Assembly (NCBI GenBank): GCA_031459535.1
Contig: JAVKIJ010000095.1
Coordinates: 1-10,550, forward strand
DNA: 10,550 nt
Origin: Candidatus Fervidifonticultor quintus
GTDB lineage: Bacteria > Sysuimicrobiota > Sysuimicrobiia > Sysuimicrobiales > Humicultoraceae
Reading direction: 5' to 3'
Each line of letters begins with the position of its first letter. The first letter of the stretch is position 1. This document shows positions 1-10,550 of this stretch, one piece after another. The notes under the pieces are model-generated. The model worked only from the letters and a program-made list of their open reading frames with translations. It was not told the DNA's origin and did no database searches. The translations under genes and the position numbers were made by a program.

Positions 1-22
1 TGGGGCGACGCGGTGTATCCTC

Positions 23-820
23 TCACTCCAGTTTGAGCAGGCCGTAGCGACCCAGGACCACCGGGACGGCCTCACCGGGCACCGCCGGCCGGGCCGCGAG
101 GGTCCCGAACTCGGGCGGCACGTCGTCTGCCACCTGCAGGCCGCCCGTGTCGATGTGGAGCGCGAGCCCTTGGAACGCGAACACCAGGGGCCTGGGGCCC
201 CGGAACGACACTTTGGTCCTGGTGGCTGCCGACACGTCGACCCCTACCTCTGCCAGGTTGCGCTGTAGCACGTTCACGTCCACCTCGATCTCCTGGCCCT
301 GCTCGTCCGTGGCCGTGACGCCGAACGACCGTGACTTGAGCGTGCGGGTGATCACCACCACCTGGCCTTCGCCGATGAAGTAGTCGTCGATCACGGGGTT
401 GCCGGCATCAAGCGCGGGACGACGGCCCAGGTACTCGCGCAGCTCGATGATGTCCACCGAGTCGGAGCGCACGTCTTCATAGGAAAATTCCACCTGCCGG
501 GCACGCTCGAAGCCGACCTTGGCGGAGATCGCCAGCGCGCCCAGCGCGGCGAGCAGCTTCCCCAGCAGATGTAGCCCCAGCCCCACGTCGAGCTTATCGG
601 TGCGGCGGCCGGTGATCTGGCCCACGAGTTCGTCTTGCCGCATCGGGGGCGGGGCATCCGCGGTTCGCATCAGCCGCGGCAACGGCCCCAGGTGCCTGGC
701 CGCGCCGGCTCCAGGGCGCTTGCCCACCAGGTCCAGCGGGTAGATGTGCTCCCGCGGCAACTGAATGGGCGTGTAGCCCAGTTCGCGCAGGAAGTCCAGA
801 GAACTCTCTCGACATGCCAT
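23..820 (-). CDS. Bacterial gasdermin (bGSDM)-like pore-forming protein, 265 aa
   Basis: Start reassigned to ATG at 820, 5 nt after a GGGGGGGA SD-like run, giving MACRESSLDFLRELGYTPIQLPREHIYPLDLV. This matches the bGSDM N-terminal pattern as I recall it (MxC...L...GY....P+..I.Pl.l), and Cys3 is the only Cys. Other recalled bGSDM-like elements: VVVITRTLKSRSF, PLVFAFQ, alternating polar/hydrophobic strands, a C-terminal tail ending GLLKLE and a typical length. No search run. Confidence 0.88.
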   Translation of the reverse strand: MACRESSLDFLRELGYTPIQLPREHIYPLDLVGKRPGAGAARHLGPLPRLMRTADAPPPMRQDELVGQITGRRTDKLDVGLGLHLLGKLLAALGALAISAKVGFERARQVEFSYEDVRSDSVDIIELREYLGRRPALDAGNPVIDDYFIGEGQVVVITRTLKSRSFGVTATDEQGQEIEVDVNVLQRNLAEVGVDVSAATRTKVSFRGPRPLVFAFQGLALHIDTGGLQVADDVPPEFGTLAARPAVPGEAVPVVLGRYGLLKLE

Positions 821-838
821 GTCCGTCCCCCCCAAGGG

Positions 839-1636
839 TCACGGCTGGATCCGAAACCGGAAGTACCACTCTCGCAGCTCCGGCGCCCGGTACTGAAGCT
901 CGCTGACGACCTGGAGGCGGGCGCCTGCGCCCCCAAGCAATCCCGCCACCAGCACGCCCTCATCACTGCCCGCCACTCGGGGCACCACCGTGACGAAGAG
1001 CTCATCGACCAGGCCCGCGGCGACCAGCCTGCGGTTGGTCTGTGGTCCGCCCTCGGCCAGCACCCGGCCAACGCCGCGGGAGGCGAGCAGATCCAGCGCG
1101 ACGGCGAGATCCACGTCGCCGTTGGCGTCCGCCGGCACCACCAGCACCTCGGCCCCGGCAACCTCGGCGCGCCGGCGATCGGCGTCGCGGGCCAGTTCCG
1201 TGGTGATGACGATCGAGGCGAAGTCCTGTTGCGCGAAGAACCGCTTGGCCAGCACGGCGTCGGAGAACTCGGCGCGGCGGGAGAGTACCACCGCGGACGG
1301 ATTGGCCGGCCGGCCGGCGGTGGTGCGGGCCTCCTGGAGGTGGCGGTGCGTGGTCGCGATGATATCGTTACGGCGCAGGGTTCCGGCGCCGCTGAGGACA
1401 ACGTCCGCCCAGCCCCGCAACGTCCGGAACAGGTAGTGGTCCACCGCCGACCCGATGGACCACGCTGCGCCACCGATGGCCACCACGCCATCCAGGGTCT
1501 GGACCATGTTGACTGCGACGGCCGGGCGCGAGCCCCTGGGCACGATGGCCAGGTCACGGTACACCCAGGCGAGCGGGACCCTCCGGGTGCCCGGTTCCCG
1601 TTCGTGGTAGACCTGGAAGAGTTCATCGGGTAGCAT
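839..1636 (-). CDS. RibD C-terminal domain / dihydrofolate reductase-family reductase (stand-alone), 265 aa
   Basis: Motifs RPAVAVNMVQTLDG, LRGWADVVLSGAGTLR, VLAEGGPQTN and GLVDELFVTVVP. Start placed at ATG 1636 (MLPDELF); the longer 1876 ORF overlaps the upstream gene and is non-protein-like there. No deaminase domain. Confidence 0.85.
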   Translation of the reverse strand: MLPDELFQVYHEREPGTRRVPLAWVYRDLAIVPRGSRPAVAVNMVQTLDGVVAIGGAAWSIGSAVDHYLFRTLRGWADVVLSGAGTLRRNDIIATTHRHLQEARTTAGRPANPSAVVLSRRAEFSDAVLAKRFFAQQDFASIVITTELARDADRRRAEVAGAEVLVVPADANGDVDLAVALDLLASRGVGRVLAEGGPQTNRRLVAAGLVDELFVTVVPRVAGSDEGVLVAGLLGGAGARLQVVSELQYRAPELREWYFRFRIQP

Positions 1637-1649
1637 CGCAGCCGGCACG

Positions 1650-3062
1650 CTAGAACTCCAACAGCGCGCCGGCTCGCACCAGCCGTTCCTGAATCTCGCG
1701 TACCAGGTCAGGGCGCCCCACAAGTGCGTGGGGAGTAGCGCGGTGGACCACGGCCACAGCCGCCGCCACCCCCGCGCCCTCGCCCATCGCCATCGTGGTG
1801 GCCACGATCCTGGCCGAGCCGGCGGCCTCAAAGGTCGCCGAGAACGCCCGGCTCGCAAAGAAGAGGCGGTCGACATTGGCCGCGATTAGCGACCGTAGCG
1901 GAATCGTGTACGGCGAGCGGACAGGGCTGTTCCCGTACCGCTCGCCGGGCACGTACTGATGCAGATCCACAGGATAGGACGCCGCGCCGATCCGGTCCCA
2001 GAACCGTCTGCGCGTGGCGATATCCTCCCCCGTCAACGTGTAGAGGCCCTGTAGGTGCCGGGTCTCGCGCACGTAGAGCTCGGGCGCGACCTCGACCAGG
2101 CGGGCATCAGAGAAGCCCGGGACACGCTCCCGCAGATACGCCACCAGGCGCGGGACCTCCCGCTTGGCGCGCCGGTAGCCGTCCATGCGCGAAGCACGGT
2201 CCGTGCCGTCCACGTCGTGCACCTGCAGCGAGTTGATCCACGCCGACCCGTCAGGCAGGCGCCCGATGTTGAGATCGTGGGCCGACAGGCGCGGATCGGC
2301 GGGCACGTAGCCGCGCATGAGGCCTCGGAATCCCCACACATACCCCAGGTAGGCGCCGCTGGGCTGCCGGCCGCGCCGGTGCCTGGAGGCGTAGGTGACG
2401 ATCGCGCGCCAGTCGAGGCCACTGACCCGGAACATGAGGGTGGCGGGCATGGCGCGCCGATCCAACCTGAGAGCCTCGCGGCCGAAGGTGAATGGCACGC
2501 CGGCGGCCGCCGCGAGATCGCCGTCGTCGGTGGCGTCTATGGTGACCTGCGCGTTCAGCGTCGCTTCGGTCCCATCCGGCAGGCCCACGATTGCACCAAT
2601 GACGGCCCGGCTCTCGACGATGGGCCGAACCAGGCGCGTCTGGAGCAGCAGGGAGATGCCGGGTTCCGCTTCGACCTTCCGCTGCAGCAGCTCGCGGACC
2701 CGCCGGGGGTCGAAGGTGATGCTTCCGATCTCGCGATAGACCTCGAGGAAGATGCCCCGGGTGAGATGGTGGCCGGTCCGAGGCATGAAGTTGAGGTCCA
2801 CCATGTTGAGCATGGCGCCGGTCCAGACGGTGCCGAGGAAGGGGCGCGGTTCGACGAGGATGACCACCATCCCCTGGCGGGCCGCGGCCAGGGCCGCGGC
2901 GACGCCGGCCGGACTGCCTCCCACGACGAGGACATCGACCCGGAACTCAGGCGGCCACCGGTCGGGCAGCAGCCGCCGCGGGTGGACCATGACCACGCCC
3001 ATCGCGAGCAACACGACGGCCACTGAGAGCGCCAGGGATCGAAGGCCCCTCATCTGCATCAC
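1650..3062 (-). CDS. FAD-dependent oxidoreductase (FAD_oxidored-type) with N-terminal signal/membrane anchor
   Basis: Rossmann motif DVLVVGGSPAGVAAALAAARQG..VILVE, IDATDDGDLAAAAG, YVRETRHLQG and GSARIVATTMAMGEGAG. Basic then hydrophobic N-terminus (RSLALSVAVVLLAMGVVMV). GGGGA lies upstream; the start may be GTG 3062, ATG 3059 or ATG 3053. Confidence 0.85.
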   Translation of the reverse strand: MMQMRGLRSLALSVAVVLLAMGVVMVHPRRLLPDRWPPEFRVDVLVVGGSPAGVAAALAAARQGMVVILVEPRPFLGTVWTGAMLNMVDLNFMPRTGHHLTRGIFLEVYREIGSITFDPRRVRELLQRKVEAEPGISLLLQTRLVRPIVESRAVIGAIVGLPDGTEATLNAQVTIDATDDGDLAAAAGVPFTFGREALRLDRRAMPATLMFRVSGLDWRAIVTYASRHRRGRQPSGAYLGYVWGFRGLMRGYVPADPRLSAHDLNIGRLPDGSAWINSLQVHDVDGTDRASRMDGYRRAKREVPRLVAYLRERVPGFSDARLVEVAPELYVRETRHLQGLYTLTGEDIATRRRFWDRIGAASYPVDLHQYVPGERYGNSPVRSPYTIPLRSLIAANVDRLFFASRAFSATFEAAGSARIVATTMAMGEGAGVAAAVAVVHRATPHALVGRPDLVREIQERLVRAGALLEF

Positions 3063-3139
3063 GCGCCACGGTCCCCAAGGCGTCGGCCCACTGCCAAGGG
3101 AGCTGGACCTCGCCTGGCACCGACGCGGCGGCGACGCCG

Positions 3140-3640
3140 CTAGCGGCGCTCGGACCGAGTGATCGCCGCCAGGGCCTCAGCCACGCGGCTGTACGTTTCG
3201 TCCAGATGCTGGGGCAGTACCTTCGTGTCGCCCAGCACCGGCATGAAGTTCGTGTCGCCCGCCCAGCGAGGTACCACGTGGACGTGCAGGTGATCCTCGA
3301 TGCCGGCACCCGCGGCCCGGCCCAGGTTCAAGCCCACATTGAAGCCTTCGGCGGCCATGGCGCGCTCCAGACCGGCGATCGCCTGGCCGGTCAGCCTGAT
3401 CAGGGCCTCGGCCTCATCGGCGGAGAGTTGATCCAGGCGCGCCACGTGGCGGAAGGGGACCACCATGAGATGGCCGCTGTTGTACGGGTATCGGTTGAGG
3501 AGGACGTATACCAGCTCGCCGCGGTGCACGATGAGCGCCGCGCGGTCGTCGCCCGCCTGGGGCACCTGGCAGAAGACGCACCCGGGCTCCCTGGGACCGG
3601 CCACGTAACTGAGGCGCCAGGGCGCCCACAGCTGTCTCAC
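3140..3640 (-). CDS. HIT-family nucleotide hydrolase/phosphorylase (Ap4A phosphorylase-like subgroup), 166 aa
   Basis: LWAPWR N-terminus, CVFC, LNRYPYNSGHLMVVP, GFNVGLNLGRAAGAGI and the histidine triad HLHVHVVPRW. GTG at 3640 overlaps the rnc stop (GTGA). Confidence 0.92.
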   Translation of the reverse strand: MRQLWAPWRLSYVAGPREPGCVFCQVPQAGDDRAALIVHRGELVYVLLNRYPYNSGHLMVVPFRHVARLDQLSADEAEALIRLTGQAIAGLERAMAAEGFNVGLNLGRAAGAGIEDHLHVHVVPRWAGDTNFMPVLGDTKVLPQHLDETYSRVAEALAAITRSERR

Positions 3641-4407
3641 GGACCGGCGCGCTCCAGCCGACGCAGCCCCTCCGCGGCCGCAGCCTGTTCTGCCTCCTTC
3701 TTGCTCTTGCCGCGGCCTTCGCCCACGACCCGGCCGCCGGCTTCCACCACCGCCACGAACGTGCGGGCGTGGTCGGGCCCTTCCTCCTGCGTGATGCGGT
3801 AGCGGGGCATCTGTCCGCGGCGCTGCAGGCGCTCCTGGAGCTGGCTCTTGAAGTCCTCGCCGGCGCGCTGGATGACCTCGCCGAGCTCGCCGAGCCACCG
3901 GGTGATGAGGTGGTGTGCCACGCCGTAACCCGAATCGATGTACACCGCGCCGATGACGGACTCCACGGCGTCGGCCAGCAGCCCCGGCCGCTGGCGCCCA
4001 CCGCCCTTCTCCTCGCCCCGGCCCAGCAGGATGTAGCGCCCGAGGTCGAGCCTCCGCGCAATGGAGGCCAGCGCCGCCTCGTTGACCACCCGCGCGCGCT
4101 GCTTGGCCAGGCCACCCTCGTCCATGTCCGGGTGCCGGCGGTAGAGATCGTCACTCACGACCAGGCTCAGCACGGCGTCTCCAAGGAACTCGAGTCGCTC
4201 GTAGCTCTTGCCCGGATCGCGGCCCTTCTCATGGCTGAACGATCCGTGCCGAAGCGCCAGGTCCAGCAGCGACCGGTCGCGGAAGCGCACGCCCAACCGT
4301 TCCTCGAGGTGGGCGAGTTGGGCCAGGCGGTCCTGGCTGAGGACCTCTCCGACGGCGCCGGTCTCGTCCGGTGGTACCGGTGGGGGCGGCCTGTGGGGTC
4401 TACGCAT
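3637..4407 (-). CDS. rnc: Ribonuclease III
   Basis: Signature [26 protein letters not shown] and a C-terminal dsRBD (DFKSQLQE...[16 protein letters not shown]). Likely ATG at 4407 overlapping the fabF stop; start less certain than the identity. Confidence 0.96.
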
Positions 4408-5650
4408 ATGCCCTCGCAATCAGGATAGCATTGTGGCCCCCAAAACCAAACGCGTTCGACATGACCGTGCGCAGCCGGGCCGGTCGCGCGGCATTGGGCA
4501 CGTAGTCGAGATCGCACTCGGGATCGGGAACGCGATAATTGATGGTCGGCGGCAGCACCTGGTGCTGGAGGGCCAGAATGCAGGCCACGAACTCGACACC
4601 GCCGGCGGCTCCCAGCAGGTGCCCGGTCATGGACTTGGTTGAACTGATGGCCAGGCGTCGCGCGTGGTCCCCGAACAGGCGCTTGATGGCCAGGGTCTCC
4701 AGACGGTCGTTGTACGGCGTGCTGGTCCCATGGGCGTTGATGTAGTCAATCTCCTCTGCCGCGAGGGCGGCGTCCGCGAGGGCTGCGGCCATGCTGCGCA
4801 GCGCCCCATCTCCTTCCGGGTCGGGCTGCGTGATGTGAAATGCGTCGGTGGTGACGCCGTAGCCGAGCACCTCGGCCAGGATCGGCGCGCCGCGGGCCTC
4901 GGCGTGCTCCAGGGCCTCCAGGACCACCACGCCGGCGCCTTCACCCATGACAAACCCGTCACGGGTGGCATCGAAAGGCCGGCACGCGCGGTCCGGTTCG
5001 TCGTTGCGGGTGGACATGGCCTTCATGGAGCAGAAGCCGGCGATGGACAACGGGGTGATGGCAGCCTCGCTGCCGCCGGCCAGCATCACGTCCGCATCGC
5101 CGCGCTGGATGATGCGGAAGGCATCGCCGATGGCGTTGCCGCCCGTGGCGCAGGCTGTCACCACGCAGGAGCTGGGCCCCTTGGCACCCGTGAGGATGGC
5201 TGTCACGCCGCTGGCCATGTTGACGATCATCATGGGGACGAAGAACGGCGAGACGCGATCGGGGCCGCGTTCCAGCAGCGTCCGGTGCTGCTCCTCCCAG
5301 GTGGCCGCCCCCCCGATCCCGGAGCCGATCAGGACTCCGGTGCGGCCGGCGTTGGCCGGCGTGATGACCAACCGCGCGTGCTCCATCGCCATACGGGTGG
5401 CGGCATAGGCAAACTGCACGAATCGGTCGTTGCGTCGGACTTCCTTTCGGTCCATGTAATCGGAGGGATCGAAGTCCCGCACCTCGGCGGCAATCTGGGT
5501 GGCAAACTTCGACGCATCGAACCGGGTGATCCGACTGACACCAGACCGGCCGGCCACCAGGGCGTTCCAGAAGGCCTCGAGACCGACCCCGATCGGGCTC
5601 ACGACACCCATGCCGGTGACGACTACGCGCCGGCACACGGGGAGCTGCAC
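4400..5650 (-). CDS. fabF: Beta-ketoacyl-ACP synthase II
   Basis: RRVVVTGMG start, catalytic TACATG (Cys), NAHGTST (His), [12 protein letters not shown] (His) and [10 protein letters not shown]. Alternative GTG start at 5638. Confidence 0.97.
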
Positions 5651-5667
5651 GCGCGGGCTCTGCGCGC

Positions 5668-5919
5668 CTATTGCGATCCGGTCTCCTTGGAATGGCTCTC
5701 GATGAAGGCCACCGCGTCACCGACGGTGACTATCTTCTCGGCCTGTTCGTCGGGAATCTCGATCTTGAACTCGTCCTCGAGCGCCATGACCAGCTCAACC
5801 ACATCGAGCGAATCCGCACCAAGATCTTCCACGAATGACGATTCGGGCGTGATGGTCTCCTCTTCCACACCCAACTGGTGTGCGACCCGCGCCCTCACGC
5901 GCTCAAAGACCGTTGCCAT
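5668..5919 (-). CDS. acpP: Acyl carrier protein
   Basis: [20 protein letters not shown] phosphopantetheine attachment motif; 83 aa, acidic; strong SD. Confidence 0.98.
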
Positions 5920-5927
5920 GGAGAGAG

Positions 5928-5934
5928 CCTCCTT
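5928..5934 (-). promoter_or_regulatory. Shine-Dalgarno site of acpP (AAGGAGG)
   Basis: The minus strand reads AAGGAGG-ctctctcc-ATG. Confidence 0.85.
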
Positions 5935-5944
5935 CAGGTACGAC

Positions 5945-6694
5945 CTAGTGCATTACCATACCGCCGTCGACGTTCAAGACCTGCCCGGTGATGTACGCGG
6001 CCTCATCCGAAGCCAGGAAGACGACGGCCGCTGCCACGTCATCGGGTGAGCCGGCTCGCCCGAGGGGGATTTGAGCCATGTACCGGGCCCTTACGTCGTC
6101 TGGTAGCCCCTCGGTCATGCCGGCCGTGATGTAGCCCGGCGCCACGGCGTTCACGGTGATCCCCCGCGAACCGACCTCCCGTGCGATCGCCCGGGTGAGC
6201 CCGATAACCCCGGCCTTCGCGGCCACGTAATTCGCCTGACCCGCGTTGCCGACCTGTCCGGCCGTGGAGGTGACGTTGATGATGCGCCCACGCCGCTGGC
6301 GCACGAACTCCCGGAGCGCGGCGCGAATGCAGTAGAACGTGCCAGTCAGGTTCGTGTCCACGACGGCCTGCCAGTCTTCGTTCTTCATGCGCAGGACCAG
6401 GCCGTCGCGCGCAATCCCGGCGTTGTTCACCAGGATGTCGAGGCGTCCGAAGGCCTCGGTGGCGGCCCCGACCACCGCTGCGGCCTGATCGGGCTTGGAG
6501 AGATCGCCCCCCACGGCCCGGGCGCGGCCTCCGGCGCCCTCGATCTCGGCCACCAGGCGAGCGGCCGCGCCGGCGTTCTGCCAGTAGTGCACGATGACCG
6601 CCGAGCCCTCCAGCGCCAGTGCCACCGCGATGCGGCTGCCAATCCCGCCGGAAGCACCGGTGACCACCGCGACCCGGTTCTCAAGCCGACCCAT
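5945..6694 (-). CDS. fabG: 3-oxoacyl-ACP reductase
   Basis: SDR motifs [21 protein letters not shown] (YxxxK) and [12 protein letters not shown]; located between fabD and acpP. Confidence 0.96.
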
Positions 6695-6706
6695 CGTCCC
6701 GAAGCC

Positions 6707-7657
6707 TCACCCTGGACGACCGCCCGACACAGACACCTTCGGCAGCCTGGCCAGGGCGGCCTCCAGGCTCGCCTGGTTCTCCACCGAGATGACCTCGGCG
6801 TCCGGCACGGTCTTCCGGATCAGGCCGGCCAGGGTCGTACCGGGGCCGGCCTCGACGAAGACGGACGCGCCGAGTTGGCGCAACGTGCGCACTGACTGCT
6901 CCCAGCGTACAGGTGCAGCCACCTGGCTGATCAGCGACGAGCGGATTGCCTCGGGCGCCTCTACCGGCTGGCCGCTGACGTTCGCTACCACCGGCAGGCG
7001 CGCGGGCCGCACCGCGGTGCCCGCGAGAACCGACGCGAGGCGGTCCGCGGCCGGTCGCATGAGCGACGTGTGGAAGGGCGCGCTGACCGCCAGCGGAATC
7101 ACCCGCCTGGCGCCCGCGGCCTTGAGCCTGGCCGTCGCGTCGGCGACCGGACCGGCATCGCCGGCGATGACCACCTGGCCCGGCGCGTTGAAGTTCACGG
7201 CCTCGACGAATCCAGGGGTCTGCTCGCACACCTCGATGACCCGGTCAGCCTCCAGCCCCAGCACCGCGGCCATGGCTGTCTGGCGGTCTCCGGCCGCCTC
7301 CTGCATGAAGCGACCTCGTTGCCGCACAACCGTCACGGCGTCGCCGAAGGCCAGGGCGCCCGCCGCCACCAAAGCCGCGTACTCGCCGAGGCTGAGTCCG
7401 GCGGCCATATCCGGTCTCACGCCGGCCTCGGCCAGCACCGACGCCACGGCCCAGCAGCACGTCAGGATCGCCGGCTGCGTGTTCTCGGTCTCGCGCAGGC
7501 GCGCTGGAGGACCGTCGCGACACAACGCCAGGACGTCCAGCCCGATTGCCTGGCTCGCCTCCGCGAAGACCCGGCGGGCCACATCATAGCGGTCGGCGAG
7601 GTCGACACCCATGCCCACATACTGGGCGCCCTGACCGGGGAAGACGAACGCGATCAC
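6707..7657 (-). CDS. fabD: Malonyl-CoA:ACP transacylase
   Basis: IAFVFPGQGAQ, TQPAI, GLSLGEY (catalytic Ser), VSAPFH and VRW. GTG at 7657 overlaps the fabH stop (GTGA). Confidence 0.96.
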   Translation of the reverse strand: MIAFVFPGQGAQYVGMGVDLADRYDVARRVFAEASQAIGLDVLALCRDGPPARLRETENTQPAILTCCWAVASVLAEAGVRPDMAAGLSLGEYAALVAAGALAFGDAVTVVRQRGRFMQEAAGDRQTAMAAVLGLEADRVIEVCEQTPGFVEAVNFNAPGQVVIAGDAGPVADATARLKAAGARRVIPLAVSAPFHTSLMRPAADRLASVLAGTAVRPARLPVVANVSGQPVEAPEAIRSSLISQVAAPVRWEQSVRTLRQLGASVFVEAGPGTTLAGLIRKTVPDAEVISVENQASLEAALARLPKVSVSGGRPG

Positions 7658-8730
7658 CGCCGGGGCCCGTGGCCCGCCGCCCGCGCCGACGCCTCGCTCC
7701 AGCACATCGCCGCCGCACCCCACGTAAGGCCACCTCCGAACGCCACGAACACCACGTGATCACCCGGACGGATGCGCCCCTGCTCCAGCGCCTCGTACAA
7801 CGCCACGGGCACCGAAGCGGACGACGTATTGCCGTAGCGATCCACATTGATGAAGAAGCGTTCCATGGGCTGCCCCAGGCGCTCGGCGGCCGCCGTGATG
7901 ATCCGGACGTTGGCCTGGTGCGGGATGAAACACTCGATGTCGTCAATCGAGAGACCAGCGGTCGCCACCACCTGTTCGATGGCGCGCGGAATCACGCGCA
8001 CCGCAAACTTGAAGACCTCGCGGCCGTTCATCTTAATGTAGTGGTCACGCGCCGCCACGGTCTGCTCGCTGGCAGGCAGCCGCGACCCGCCAGCCGGTAA
8101 ACTGATCCACTGCCCGCCGGAACCATCCGCGCCCAGATGAAACGCCAGGAAGCCTTCCCCAGGTGGGCATGGCCGCAGCACCACCGCCGCCGCGGCGTCT
8201 CCAAACAGCACGCAGGTGGCGCGATCGGTCCAATCGGTGATGCGCGAGAGGGTCTCGGAGCCGATGACCAGCACGCTCTCCGCCGTGCCCGACGCGATGG
8301 CCGCGTGCCCCATGGCCACGCCATAGGCCCAGCTGCTGCACGCGGCCGAGAGATCGAAGGCACCCGCCCGCTTGGCGCCCAACCGCTCCTGCACCAGGCA
8401 CGCGGTGGCGGGAAAGAGCATGTCCGGCGAAGCGGTCCCCACAATGACCAGGTCCAGGTCGCCAGCGTCGACGCCGGCGTCGAGCAGGGCCTCCTGGGCG
8501 GCTTCCACCGCCAGGTCCGACGTGGCCACATCGGGCGGCGCGACGCGGCGCTCGCGGATGCCGGTGCGGGTCTGAATCCACTCATCAGTGGTGTCCACGA
8601 GCTTCTCGAGATCGTGGTTGGTGAGGATCTCGGCCGGAATCGCCCGCCCGATGCCGGCGATGGTCGACCCTCGCCTGATCCCTGAGCGCATCGCTGGGCG
8701 CACACGCTCGGCCTGTTTGACATACGCCAC
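7654..8730 (-). CDS. fabH: Beta-ketoacyl-ACP synthase III
   Basis: WIQTRTGIRERR, AAC (Cys), LFGD, PHQAN (His), GNTSSAS (Asn) and FGGGLTWG. GTG at 8730 is preferred because GGGGGG lies 6 nt upstream; TTG 8736 or ATG 8691 are possible. Confidence 0.95.
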   Translation of the reverse strand: MAYVKQAERVRPAMRSGIRRGSTIAGIGRAIPAEILTNHDLEKLVDTTDEWIQTRTGIRERRVAPPDVATSDLAVEAAQEALLDAGVDAGDLDLVIVGTASPDMLFPATACLVQERLGAKRAGAFDLSAACSSWAYGVAMGHAAIASGTAESVLVIGSETLSRITDWTDRATCVLFGDAAAAVVLRPCPPGEGFLAFHLGADGSGGQWISLPAGGSRLPASEQTVAARDHYIKMNGREVFKFAVRVIPRAIEQVVATAGLSIDDIECFIPHQANVRIITAAAERLGQPMERFFINVDRYGNTSSASVPVALYEALEQGRIRPGDHVVFVAFGGGLTWGAAAMCWSEASARAAGHGPRR

Positions 8731-8793
8731 GGTCAACCCCCCAACCCCACCGGCCGCCGCTTCCGCAGGCTGGCCCGTAGCTGGCGTCGGTTC

Positions 8794-9003
8794 TCAGGAC
8801 TCCTTCTTCTTCTTCTTCTTCGATCGTGCGGACTCGACCGCGATGACCTCACGCCCCGCATAGTAGCCGCACGAGGGACACACTCGGTGCGGCACGATCA
8901 GAGTCTTGCACTGGGGACACGTGACCAGTGTCACCGGAGCCGCCTTCCACGTACTGCGGCGGCTCCCTGTTCTCGACCTCGGATGCCGACGTTTCTGAGC
9001 CAC
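8794..9003 (-). CDS. rpmF: 50S ribosomal protein L32 (zinc-ribbon type), 69 aa
   Basis: C-terminal part of the 8794..9444 ORF: KRRHPRSRTGSRR...CPQC...PHRVCPSCGYYAGREV. GTG at 9003 with AGGAGG 7 nt upstream; follows yceD. Confidence 0.95.
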   Translation of the reverse strand: MAQKRRHPRSRTGSRRSTWKAAPVTLVTCPQCKTLIVPHRVCPSCGYYAGREVIAVESARSKKKKKKES

Positions 9004-9010
9004 GCACTCT

Positions 9011-9016
9011 CCTCCT
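9011..9016 (-). promoter_or_regulatory. Shine-Dalgarno site of rpmF (AGGAGG)
   Basis: The minus strand reads AGGAGG-agagtgc-GTG. Confidence 0.85.
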
Positions 9017-9046
9017 GTCTCCCGTTGCCGTTCCGCTGTCCACATC

Positions 9047-9622
9047 CTAGCAGCCGCCACCCGACGGCCGACCCTGGCCCCATCGGGAGAGCGGGGCCAG
9101 CCGGGGATCGACCGCGGCGGGCCCTGGGGACTCCCGCGAGCAACGGCACGGCTCGAGGCGAAGATTGGCGCCGCAGCCGGCGCATAGCCCCGGGCAGTCC
9201 GGGCTGCAGTGGGCCGCCATGGGCAGCGCCAGCACCAGCGCATCGCGGGCCAGCGTTTCCAGGTCGAGTTCGATGCTCTCGCCGATCCGGATGAGGTAGC
9301 CGGCCTCGCCCTCGGCCGCTGCTCCCGGTGCGGTCGCCGACCCCCACCCCGCCTCCTCCTCCACCGCTGCATCCAGATGATACGCGAACGGCGAACCGCA
9401 CCGGTCGCAGATGAGCGTCGCCACCGTTCGCAGCCGCCCTTCAATCCGCAGAACGGCGCCGAGATTCGTCAATGTGATCGTGCCCTCGACCGGGTGGACG
9501 AACGGAATCTCGTCAATGCGGCTGGCGACCGTGTCGTGGATCTGGACTGCCAGCGTTGCGCCGCGCTCGGCGCGCACCTGCCGCAGATCCAGCCTCAAGG
9601 CGCGCCCGCTCCCATCAGGCAT
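9047..9622 (-). CDS. yceD: DUF177/YceD family protein
   Basis: CDRC, IELDLETLARDALVLALPM, CSPDCPGLCAGCGANL..C.C and DPRLAPL; directly upstream of rpmF. Confidence 0.92.
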   Translation of the reverse strand: MPDGSGRALRLDLRQVRAERGATLAVQIHDTVASRIDEIPFVHPVEGTITLTNLGAVLRIEGRLRTVATLICDRCGSPFAYHLDAAVEEEAGWGSATAPGAAAEGEAGYLIRIGESIELDLETLARDALVLALPMAAHCSPDCPGLCAGCGANLRLEPCRCSRESPGPAAVDPRLAPLSRWGQGRPSGGGC

Positions 9623-9630
9623 ATCATGCC

Positions 9631-9660
9631 ATTATAGGAACGCGCGAAAAGAGGTGTCAA
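9631..9660 (-). promoter_or_regulatory. Sigma70/SigA promoter, TTGACA-N18-TATAAT
   Basis: The minus strand reads TTGACA (9660-9655) cctcttttcgcgcgttcc TATAAT (9636-9631). Both hexamers are perfect, intergenic and point into yceD. Confidence 0.92.
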
Positions 9661-9705: not shown

Positions 9706-10164
9706 CTACCGATCGCGTCGGCCCGGTGAGCGCAGCACCTCCCGGCCGCGCCGGATCGTCGCCAGGATCTTTCCGACTTCTTCCTCAAGGCGCTCCAGGA
9801 CCTGCGCGGCGTACTCATCGGCTCCACGTCGCACGCGTTCCGCTTCGCGCCTGGCATCCTCGACCAACGCCTGTCCTCGGGCAGGTGGCGGGCCGGCCGG
9901 CGAGTTCTCGCTCAAGGCTCGTGCGTGCGCCTGAGCGTCGAGCACGATGCGCCGGGCGTCCTCGCGGGCGCGGGCCAGGGTTCGCTCGGCCTCGTGGAGC
10001 AGGCGGGTGGCCTGATGCAGCTCCCTGGGCAGGGCAGCTCGCGCCATCTGCAGCAGCCCCACCACATCGCGCTCGATGACCTGCCGCTCGGCAGCTGGCA
10101 GCCGGAGCGCATGCCGGCGGAGCAAACCTTCCAGGCGGTCGAGGATCTCCAGGGCGGTTTCCAC
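9706..10164 (-). CDS. Coiled-coil protein, DivIVA/SepIVA-like (coaD-adjacent conserved family)
   Basis: Helical, charged sequence (LPRELHQATRLL, AREDARRIV, ARREAERVRRGADEYAAQVLERLE, IRRGREVL). The position between coaD and yceD is typical of this family. Confidence 0.7.
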   Translation of the reverse strand: METALEILDRLEGLLRRHALRLPAAERQVIERDVVGLLQMARAALPRELHQATRLLHEAERTLARAREDARRIVLDAQAHARALSENSPAGPPPARGQALVEDARREAERVRRGADEYAAQVLERLEEEVGKILATIRRGREVLRSPGRRDR

Positions 10165-10166
10165 GG

Positions 10167-10550
10167 CTACGGCTGAACCGGCCAGCGCGCCCGCAGGCGT
10201 CGGACGACCGGGGGCGGACAGATGCCCTCCACCGAGCCGCCCAGGCGCGCCACCTCCCGAATCAGGGACGACGACACAAACGCATACTCGGGATCGGCAA
10301 TGAAGAGCAGGGTGTCCAGTGTGGGCGCCAGACGCCGGTTCATCGCCGACTGCTTCAGCTCATAGTCGAAGTCACCGACCGCCCGCAGCCCTTTGATCAG
10401 GCACGTTGCTCCCCGCGAGAGCGCAAAGTCCACGGTGAGCCCGGAGTACGCGGCCACTTCGACGGACGGCATGCCGCTGAGGGCTTCCTGGAGCATGGCC
10501 ACGCGGTCGGCCAGGGGAAACGCCCCTGGGACCTTCTCCACGTTCTCTGC
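10167..10550 (-). CDS. coaD: Phosphopantetheine adenylyltransferase (5' end outside the window)
   Basis: GLTVDFA, IKGLRAVGDFDYE, MNRRL and FVSSSLIREVA. The frame is open to the window edge. Confidence 0.93.
   Translation of the reverse strand, partial: AENVEKVPGAFPLADRVAMLQEALSGMPSVEVAAYSGLTVDFALSRGATCLIKGLRAVGDFDYELKQSAMNRRLAPTLDTLLFIADPEYAFVSSSLIREVARLGGSVEGICPPPVVRRLRARWPVQP

Follow-up and report, generated by a model that had tools for sequence, protein, structure and literature searches.

A bacterial gasdermin in a variable slot downstream of a fatty acid synthesis gene run, probably without a linked protease

Gasdermins are cell-suicide pore proteins. Bacterial gasdermins (bGSDMs) are understood as protease-triggered suicide effectors that occur in defence islands. 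In the stretch of DNA analysed here, which comes from a hot-spring bacterium, is 10,550 nucleotides long and is called the window below, a gasdermin gene follows a run of fatty acid synthesis genes on the same strand. This raises the question of why it is there. The original prediction, put forward as speculation, was that the gasdermin may have been domesticated and coupled to growth, being expressed together with ACP/FAS-II genes that could supply its acyl chain.

Our preferred reading, with a probability of roughly 0.6, is that the gasdermin is an accessory gene in a variable slot after a RibD_C-type gene, that it is probably an orphan, and that its being near the fab genes is a matter of position, not of function. 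The slot happens to lie downstream of a conserved yceD-rpmF-fabHDG-acpP-fabF-rnc-HIT core.

Gene order and the gasdermin protein

The window spans the whole of contig C134 (G000:C134:1-10550) in a metagenome-assembled genome (MAG), G000, which is 88.85% complete with 5.24% contamination. The contig ends 22 nt past the gasdermin stop. Since the MAG contig stops there, the window alone cannot show whether the gasdermin is at the tail of the run. The features are, in the direction of reading:

9631..9660, minus strand: sigma-70-type promoter-like site, TTGACA-18-TATAAT, 12/12 consensus
9047..9622, minus strand: yceD (PF02620, E 1.4e-23)
about 8794..9000, minus strand: rpmF (Pfam match)
7654..8736, minus strand: fabH (Pfam match)
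6707..about 7657, minus strand: fabD (Pfam match)
5945..6694, minus strand: fabG (Pfam match)
5668..5919, minus strand: acpP (Pfam match)
4400..5650, minus strand: fabF (Pfam match)
3637..4419, minus strand: rnc, RNase III (PF14622, PF00636, PF00035; congeners 84-91% identical)
3140..about 3580 (start uncertain), minus strand: HIT-family protein, last gene of the conserved core (PF01230, E 3.6e-13)
1650..3062, minus strand: FAD-dependent oxidoreductase (FADox) with hydrophobic N-terminus (PF12831, E 2.5e-92)
839..1636, minus strand: RibD_C-type (pyrimidine-reductase-like) reductase, conserved left anchor of the locus (PF01872, E 5e-25)
821..838, minus strand: 18-nt spacer from RibD_C stop to the ATG of the gasdermin, containing a G-rich Shine-Dalgarno-like run (from sequence)
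23..820, minus strand: bacterial gasdermin, 265 aa (PADLOC, NCBIfam, PDB profile, AF2/Foldseek)
1..22, no strand: 3' flank of the gasdermin up to the end of the contig, without a visible start codon for a next gene (from sequence)

Every called gene from 9622 down to 23 is on the minus strand. With the listed starts, the gaps are 77 nt (HIT/FADox), 13 nt (FADox/RibD_C) and 18 nt (RibD_C/gasdermin). The promoter-like site at 9660-9631 is the only one found in the window, where shuffled sequences yield 0.7. Scanning the whole window gave 3 terminator-like sites against 3.1 expected, none of them in an intergenic gap of the run. Folding z-scores are -1.26 for the 77-nt gap, -0.34 for the rnc/HIT gap and +1.30 for the gasdermin 3' end. 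A tRNA search of the window found none, and the 15 ORFs scanned contain no integrase or transposase domains. The gasdermin has a GC3 of 0.860, at the 54th percentile among 2162 long ORFs of the genome, and a codon score of z = +0.44, so codon usage is host-like. The description behind the original prediction thus holds up: co-orientation from the promoter at 9631-9660 down to the gasdermin, the three gap sizes, the lack of a terminator in the run, neighbour-like composition, and no integrase, transposase or tRNA.

PADLOC, applied to the gasdermin plus the 3 genes upstream of it, reports besides bGSDM only a generic, ThsC-like HIT-domain match (E 7e-14). The HIT-family protein scores 169 bits on the NCBIfam ATP adenylyltransferase model, under the cut-off of 290. 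Known defence or mobility genes are not among the neighbours, and on that measure this is not a defence island. A caveat on the described run is that the 3 genes immediately upstream of the gasdermin are neither fab nor ribosomal.

The ORF at 23-820 on the minus strand is an intact bacterial gasdermin, as had been claimed, and the family is already known. It matches the PADLOC bGSDM model PDLC02986 with E 3.3e-61, and scores 175.4 bits on NCBIfam prok_gasdermin NF051890, above the curated cut-off of 100. A profile of PDB 7n51 covers residues 3-264 (E 1e-45). The Pfam set scanned gave no match, and the protein table assigns PF26164. An AF2 model from 116 sequences reaches pLDDT 86.2 and pTM 0.81; an earlier model from 24 close sequences only was poor (pLDDT 52). 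Foldseek puts 7n51 first (E 2e-23, TM 0.77, rmsd 1.8 A, 228 columns). Ranks 1-8 are all bGSDM structures, with GSDMA3 and GSDMD next, so the model has the fold of a gasdermin N-terminal domain.

All 75 columns that are invariant across 24 family members are kept. Cys3 lies within a MACRESS motif and is invariant in 7/7 sequences and nearly so across the 24 family members. It is the conserved N-terminal cysteine, a predicted palmitoylation site. The C-terminal peptide at ~253-265 contains the conserved PVVLxRxGLLxL(D/E) and comes after a variable loop at ~241-252; pLDDT is low at residues 241-245 and 253-265. The protein aligns with 7n51 through residue 263, placing L261 opposite L260 of the Vitiosangium bGSDM, which caps the palmitoyl tunnel in the account of Johnson et al. 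(bioRxiv 10.1101/2021.06.07.447441). Judging from alignment and model, a short and presumably autoinhibitory C-terminal peptide replaces the C-terminal domain.

The site in related genomes

The gasdermin is present in 7/34 genomes of the family, in 4/12 genera. In 6 relatives the variable slot is bordered by RibD_C orthologues with 63-69% identity. Five of these 6 also have FADox at the locus; congener G003 gave no match. The interval between the fab-rnc-HIT core and the gasdermin is a mosaic: besides the missing FADox in G003, some genomes carry a PaaA/C/D-like insert there.

Three arrangements are found at the slot. Congeners G001 and G003, and G014 of another genus, have RibD_C-X-GSDM-Y(-MFS). 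In this cassette X is an LCAT-like alpha/beta-hydrolase, Y a CHAT/C25-like cysteine protease and MFS a transporter, and the insert extends leftwards. Congeners G002 and G004 have DNA-repair genes in the slot (RibD_C-UDG-unknown-PolB-DUF72-SecD), and G012, from a further genus, has nothing in it (RibD_C-DUF72-SecD). These last 3 genomes share the fab-rnc-HIT...RibD_C locus, yet the gasdermin was not found there. The slot contents thus differ among relatives, which marks the position after the RibD_C-type gene as a variable hotspot. The original prediction had proposed this synteny comparison, and would have been contradicted by absence from close relatives and an island extending leftwards. Among the 4 congeners with an assembled locus, 2 have a gasdermin at the slot and 2 do not, and the leftward insert of G001, G003 and G014 comprises four genes. 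The relatives thereby contradict the original prediction on its own terms.

The linkage with fab is not conserved either. Of the 6 gasdermin-bearing relatives, 2 (G001, G003) have the gasdermin within 10 kb downstream of fabF and 3 have it elsewhere; the G014 contig is 5.8 kb long and retains only the FADox-RibD_C flank. In G006, G007 and G023 the gasdermin is at other, unrelated loci.

Coupling to FAS-II could draw on the co-orientation from a strong promoter-like site, the short gaps, the lack of terminators and the native codon usage. RNA-library data also show the gasdermin at a depth similar to its neighbours', with a contig spanning 383-905, across the RibD_C/gasdermin junction, but these are weak, being strandless and possibly carried-over DNA. 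Against this, the gasdermin is patchy, it was not found at the locus in three relatives and lies elsewhere in three others, and between it and acpP/fabF are 5 kb of genes that are not fab genes and vary in content. In addition, according to Johnson et al. bGSDMs palmitoylate themselves, an observation on protein produced in E. coli (bioRxiv 10.1101/2021.06.07.447441). This calls for no dedicated acyl donor next door. A domesticated, growth-coupled gasdermin fed by adjacent FAS-II genes is therefore highly improbable. Nothing links the gasdermin to FAS-II, and the hope that this locus would open up the acyl-donor question is not borne out. Functional membership of a fab/FAS-II operon was considered and rejected, since the linkage is not conserved where the gasdermin occurs.

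What remains of the predicted co-expression is that read-through from upstream would be the simplest route, while growth coupling is unsupported. The placement in a housekeeping tail, outside a defence island, is right in that no recognisable defence or mobility genes adjoin; the gasdermin is however in a variable slot, and the window stops at a contig end.

Partner genes beyond the contig end

Synteny with the three cassette relatives alone would predict a protease gene directly after the gasdermin, which counts against an orphan. Upstream there is no protease next to the gasdermin, as RibD_C is 18 nt away, and the downstream side is readable for 22 nt only.

Logan DNA contigs reach 898, 2545 and 3472 nt further left. 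The longest of these is a 6544-nt contig that covers 1-3072 of the window plus 3472 nt beyond. Gasdermin variant P0239 is also on a contig of 6544 nt, and its R35L corresponds to the SNP at 717 in the run behind that Logan contig. In relatives, the far flank of the slot is marked by DUF72 and SecD. Contig C24 has both, and ends in a truncated Gfo gene. The full-length form (372 aa) is found on two sizes of Logan contig, 6544 and 5701 nt, which are also sizes of gasdermin-bearing contigs. On the basis of these equal sizes, a convergent Gfo/Idh/MocA oxidoreductase gene is placed at most 2.35 kb downstream of the contig end.

Could a complete two-gene gasdermin-protease defence system be hidden there, its protease lost by an assembly break only? 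The protease search leaves the up to 2.35 kb between gasdermin and Gfo unread, room for a gene of up to ~750 aa, and a gene of 1.4 kb would fit. In 3/3 relatives with the gasdermin at this slot, Y starts ~36-45 nt after the gasdermin stop, and 43/50 bGSDMs adjoin a protease in the survey of Johnson et al. (bioRxiv 10.1101/2021.06.07.447441). Y matches the PADLOC 'chat' model PDLC02988 over its full length, with E 1e-34 to 1e-36. But cassette gene X is absent from this lineage, where RibD_C adjoins the gasdermin, so the architecture is already different; X is confined to the 3 cassette genomes among 34. The Y profile, PDLC02988, PF12770 and PF00656 gave 0 matches in G000, itself 88.85% complete. 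Among 69 Y homologues none is on a contig of 6544, 5701, 5702, 4033 or 29475 nt, the sizes of this clade's gasdermin-bearing contigs, although this comparison is indirect, only the longest contig per cluster is shown and a Y copy could hide. By the same comparison four cassette-clade gasdermins do have contig sizes in common with Y matches, at 22953, 4090, 6742 and 5280 nt. No Y homologue turned up at 36%-59% identity, the range expected for this divergent lineage. A protease in the unread interval is thus unlikely. As no CHAT/caspase-type protease was found in this lineage, its gasdermin is probably an orphan, without a linked protease.

Gasdermin lineages and mode of action

The gasdermin subfamily is restricted to Armatimonadota, and trees show three clades, with a rooting that depends on a long outgroup branch. 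Identity between the gasdermin under study and all others is 61-64%, against 80-83% among cassette copies; the flanking RibD_C proteins are 63-71% alike throughout.

An orphan might be a mere relic, left over after a three-gene cassette lost its hydrolase and protease, harmless as long as it is autoinhibited, and drifting. Partner genes were indeed not found, and the divergence from the cassette copies is about twice that expected from the flanking genes. Yet the frame is open and all family-invariant residues are kept. Full-length gasdermins of the same clade occur in other samples at 86-89% identity, one of them on a 29.5-kb contig. Among runs there are 5 SNPs in the gene; 3 are synonymous, and both replacements (R35L, E126G) restore the family consensus. 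Another protease-less clade (G006, G007) is conserved across two genera. This makes decay quite improbable.

G006 and G007 are 94-97% complete and contain no CHAT, C14 or Y-type protease. It is a tentative and rather doubtful extension that two of the three Armatimonadota clades, this one and that of G006/G007, are genuinely protease-less, with Cys3 and tail under selection in ordinary operons. Activation would then have to come from a housekeeping protease not dedicated to the gasdermin, or from a cue that involves no proteolysis, such as membrane, redox or temperature stress in a hot spring. Such gasdermins would couple suicide or permeabilisation to stress rather than belong to a phage-sensor module.

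For this accessory and probably orphan gasdermin, a likely mode of action can be sketched from the family. Given the 18-nt spacer without a promoter-like site, read-through from FADox-RibD_C is proposed for its expression. The protein would be lipidated on Cys3 and kept inactive by the C-terminal peptide (~253-265). A protease cut in the loop at ~241-252 would free it to form lethal membrane pores.

The Vitiosangium sp. bGSDM (PDB 7n51; pore forms 8sl0, 9a84) shares the fold, the N-terminal Cys, the full-length profile match and, instead of a large C-terminal domain, a short C-terminal peptide with a terminal GLLxL motif. Identity in the structural alignment is however just 32%. Johnson et al. 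(bioRxiv 10.1101/2021.06.07.447441) place the Vitiosangium gene in a bGSDM-protease operon beside defence genes of the RM and SIR2 kinds; at the present locus no protease and no defence neighbours are seen. The same preprint describes Cys palmitoylation, peptide autoinhibition and loop cleavage for the Runella zeae bGSDM and its CHAT protease, and these may apply here too. The cassette of the congeners, gasdermin then 'chat' protease, is of the Runella zeae type, whereas the lineage of the window has no detectable CHAT-type gene. The proteases themselves differ: that of Runella is a Roc-COR-CHAT protein, that of the congeners a 465-aa stand-alone protein whose distant homologues carry Peptidase_C25. 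In the Lysobacter four-gene system with a CARD-like domain (PMC10312443) the gasdermin is likewise the effector of a protease cascade. Its two trypsin-like proteases and NLR-like ATPase have no counterpart here or in the congeners' cassette.

The locus thus shows a gasdermin in an ordinary chromosomal neighbourhood, of native composition and probably without its protease. The same site holds hydrolase, gasdermin and protease in some congeners and nothing of these in others, a compact natural series that allows before-and-after comparison. It bears on how gasdermin modules are gained, stripped down and retained, and on how bGSDMs without a linked protease (7/50 in the founding survey of Johnson et al., bioRxiv 10.1101/2021.06.07.447441) are activated.

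The cassette also resembles protease-activated alpha/beta-hydrolase effectors (bioRxiv 10.1101/2025.11.14.688446) in pairing a hydrolase with a caspase-like protease, a likeness that concerns the relatives only, as the window has no hydrolase. The accessible part of that preprint describes no cassette with hydrolase and gasdermin beside one protease. The series also bears on the LCAT-like hydrolase as a possible second protease-activated effector.

The gasdermin and the gene run it ends

The 265-aa ORF at 23-820 on the minus strand is a member of the bacterial gasdermin (bGSDM) family, by all four sequence and structure criteria. It matches the PADLOC bGSDM model with an E-value of 3.3e-61, and scores 175 bits against NCBIfam prok_gasdermin, where the cut-off is 100. 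Its family profile aligns with the Vitiosangium bGSDM (7n51) over residues 3-264 with an E-value of 1e-45. A structure model based on 116 homologues has a pLDDT of 86.2 and a TM score of 0.77 on 7n51, and the next structural matches are other bGSDM structures, then mammalian gasdermins. This larger alignment replaced one of 24 close homologues, from which the model was unusable (pLDDT 52).

The protein has the Cys3 and the C-terminal peptide, and its L261 aligns with a Vitiosangium leucine that the available part of the published description gives as capping the palmitoyl tunnel. All 75 family-invariant residues are kept. There are 5 SNPs in the gene among sequencing runs; 3 are synonymous and 2 go back to the family consensus. 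Judged by these features, the gene does not appear to be decaying. Its composition also resembles that of its host: GC3 is 0.860 and the codon score has a z of +0.44, typical of the genome. The gasdermin is real, intact and compositionally native. The wider family numbers 811 representatives at E <= 0.001. Within it, the subfamily of this gasdermin forms one cluster at 50% identity, and the relatives next in line share 36-37% identity.

The genome (G000) is a 3.1-Mb MAG of 138 contigs, 88.85% complete and 5.24% contaminated, and the window is its complete contig C134. The sequencing runs that contain this DNA are hot-spring metagenomes. From yceD to the left end, the genes are:

Minus strand: yceD, rpmF, fabH, fabD, fabG, acpP, fabF, rnc
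Minus strand: HIT-family gene
Minus strand: FAD-dependent oxidoreductase (PF12831)
839-1636, minus strand: RibD_C-type reductase
23-820, minus strand: the gasdermin

The original prediction described this as a co-oriented run with small gaps, a promoter at 9631-9660 and no terminator, free of tRNA, integrase and transposase genes. Each of these points stood up. All genes are on the minus strand, with the claimed gaps of 77, 13 and 18 nt, and at 9660-9631 a promoter-like site fits the consensus at 12/12 positions. Terminator-like sites number three where 3.1 are expected from shuffles, none of them inside the gaps of the run, and a tRNA search and domain scan of the window returned no tRNA, integrase or transposase. 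Three spacers of the run were folded, and showed no structure above that of shuffles.

Within 9622-9660, the perfect -35/-10 pair stops 9 nt ahead of the yceD ATG. A transcript from it would be leaderless, or nearly so, unless yceD starts further in. Nearby, 9706-10176 holds two overlapping ORFs on opposite strands, neither with a convincing family match. The minus-strand one (152 aa) comes right after a coaD-like gene; the plus-strand one is 148 aa from stop to stop, with a GC3 of 0.86.

A variable slot after the RibD_C gene

The position after RibD_C is a variable slot. The comparison covers loci where they are assembled; the contig of G005 breaks ahead of the slot.

Contents of the slot in relatives, starting from RibD_C
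G001, G003 (same genus): RibD_C, hydrolase X, gasdermin, protease Y, then an MFS transporter
G014 (another genus): RibD_C, X, gasdermin, Y
G002, G004 (same genus): RibD_C, uracil-DNA glycosylase, unknown gene, PolB, DUF72, SecD; without gasdermin
G012 (another genus): RibD_C directly to DUF72 and SecD

Occurrence of the gasdermin is patchy: with G000 counted, it is present in 7 of the 34 species genomes of the family and 4 of 12 genera. When one protein served as the query, 7 of the 41 nearest relatives had it. In the loci lacking it, no remnant of gasdermin, X or Y was found at E-values up to 5; the search yielded just weak similarity to N-terminal extensions of ORFs, which are of low complexity. 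Around the cassette in G001 and G003, no direct or inverted repeats were found beyond short chance-level matches, and there is therefore no att-like evidence of a mobile element.

The run has a second variable point. In G001, G003 and G012, a three-gene block resembling PaaA/PaaC/PaaD separates the HIT gene from the FAD oxidoreductase as an insertion (L009:3635-6273; L008:13161-15787; L021:10796-13471), and is absent from the window. The FAD oxidoreductase itself had no match at the G003 locus.

The three-gene cassettes are located as follows:

L009:8553-12229 (G001): X, gasdermin, Y
L008:8558-12243 (G003): X, gasdermin, Y
L010:430-4148 (G014): X, gasdermin, Y

X is an LCAT/PGAP1-like alpha/beta-hydrolase of about 465 aa with a GHSMGG elbow, and occurs in 3 of the 34 family genomes, which are exactly the three cassette genomes. 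Y, also about 465 aa, carries the motifs YTASHGG and FNFACYSGG and matches, along its whole length, the PADLOC model for the 'chat' protease that accompanies gasdermins (E 1e-34 to 1e-36); its distant homologues carry Peptidase_C25. The cassette of the congeners is clearly a gasdermin-protease system. Protease-activated alpha/beta-hydrolase effectors have been described (bioRxiv 10.1101/2025.11.14.688446, in its available part), which by analogy makes this cassette, outside the window, a plausible two-effector module. X could be a second protease-activated effector; an acyltransferase acting on the gasdermin is a less likely role for it. The database protein P0184 (301 aa) has a precomputed LCAT Pfam domain, yet 42% of its length matches the Y query at 65% identity. 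Hydrolase and protease may be fused in it, or may have been joined by a gene call with a frame shift.

In G006, G007, G023 and one metagenome contig, the gasdermin stands alone at unrelated loci, as OsmC-GSDM-CspA or helicase-GSDM-CspA-STAND. These copies form a clade, and each is followed by a cold-shock protein gene:

L011:8961-9755 (G007): lone gasdermin
L012:6586-7380 (G023): lone gasdermin
L013:10001-10798 (G006): lone gasdermin
L025:10001-10792: lone gasdermin

Searches across G006 (94% complete) and G007 (97% complete) gave no Y, CHAT or C14 protease. A metagenome scan gave two gasdermin loci, one of them a lone copy syntenic with G006. A short hydrophobic ORF downstream of the G006 and L025 gasdermins is conserved at the DNA level. 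G013, an unpublished genome, has a weak Y-like match on which no conclusion depends.

Trees resolve three well-supported gasdermin clades. Identity is 80-83% among the cassette copies and 72-94% among the lone copies, and the window gasdermin is 61-64% identical to every one of both. The flanking RibD_C is 63-71% identical in each pair compared. With 12 outgroups the window clade branches first and the other two group together with 97/100 support, on a tree where the outgroup branch is long. Close relatives of the window gasdermin are limited to two proteins from metagenomes, one 89% and the other 86% identical to it; a 29.5-kb contig carries a variant of the latter.

Expression, activation and the fatty acid genes

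Judging by the spacing, transcription of the oxidoreductase and reductase genes would read through into the gasdermin. The region is present in a metatranscriptome run, where a contig of 522 nt (383-905) crosses the junction between RibD_C and gasdermin. This contig has neither strand nor level and may be of DNA origin, so it speaks neither for nor against co-transcription. By likeness to its family, as far as the available text of Johnson et al. (bioRxiv 10.1101/2021.06.07.447441) describes it, the protein would be lipidated on Cys3 and autoinhibited by residues about 253-265. A cut within the loop of residues about 241-252 would activate it, after which it would form pores.

The original prediction also proposed that this may be a domesticated, growth-coupled gasdermin, co-expressed with FAS-II genes that could supply its acyl chain. 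This idea is without support: half of the gasdermin-bearing relatives have no fab linkage, the locus in G002, G004 and G012 gave no gasdermin, variable non-fab genes lie between it and acpP, and bGSDM palmitoylation is described as self-palmitoylation (Johnson et al., available text). The observation of a gasdermin at the end of this run is confirmed. Against the refuting condition that came with it, absence at this locus in close relatives, most of the interpretation fails.

Beyond the contig end

Searching the G000 MAG with tblastn for the relatives' X, Y, MFS and PaaA gave no matches, and hydrolase X is absent at this locus. Nor did Y, PDLC02988, CHAT or Peptidase_C14 have a match in the assembled 88.85% of the genome. 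The gasdermin stop is followed by 22 nt of contig, not alignable to the relatives' GSDM-Y spacers. The first bases of C134 share no 15-, 21- or 31-mers with other MAG contigs, and blastn-short gave chance matches only, so that the assembly alone offers no join.

Public contigs, each assembled from a single run and together from 3 DNA runs, include the leftmost 1-3 kb of the window and extend 898, 2545 and 3472 nt beyond it. Members of the gasdermin's 90% cluster are on Logan contigs of 6544, 5701, 5702 and 4033 nt; the one on the 6544-nt contig has R35L, which is the variant at position 717 in the 6544-nt contig of run X3. Another contig of G000, C24, ends with SecD (minus strand), DUF72 (plus strand) and, in its final 830 bases (L024:5316-6143), a Gfo/Idh/MocA oxidoreductase gene that the contig end cuts off after 276 codons. 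At its full length of 372 aa, and with 100% identity, this protein is found on Logan contigs no longer than 6544 nt; a form that differs by one residue is found on contigs no longer than 5701 nt. Both proteins occur on matching 6544- and 5701-nt contigs, and therefore the ends of C134 and C24 join. A look-up of the DUF72 protein gave contigs of 51144 and 2462 nt only, from a table whose contig counts are visibly incomplete, and sets no lower bound on the spacer.

With C134 and C24 joined, the Gfo/Idh/MocA gene converges on the gasdermin, close downstream. From stop to stop the distance is at most 3472 - 1119 = 2353 nt, a stretch that may hide one more gene. A Y-type protease there is unlikely. 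None of the 69 Y homologues is on a contig matching in size those that bear the window-clade gasdermin, an indirect test since the table gives only the longest contig per cluster; four cassette-clade gasdermins do share contig sizes with Y matches. The same search found no Y homologues of intermediate identity.

bGSDMs with no protease next to them have been recorded before, 7 of 50 in Johnson et al. (bioRxiv 10.1101/2021.06.07.447441). Among the papers listed by a literature search, none is devoted to orphan bacterial gasdermins, going by title or abstract. This one is probably an orphan.

Thousands of database proteins, including some with the labels Bradyrhizobiaceae or Pseudolabrys, share 85-93% identity with the Gfo/Idh/MocA protein, and no homologue was found at the relatives' loci. 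This suggests that the gene may have entered the same slot recently by horizontal transfer. In codon usage it resembles the host (z +0.32).
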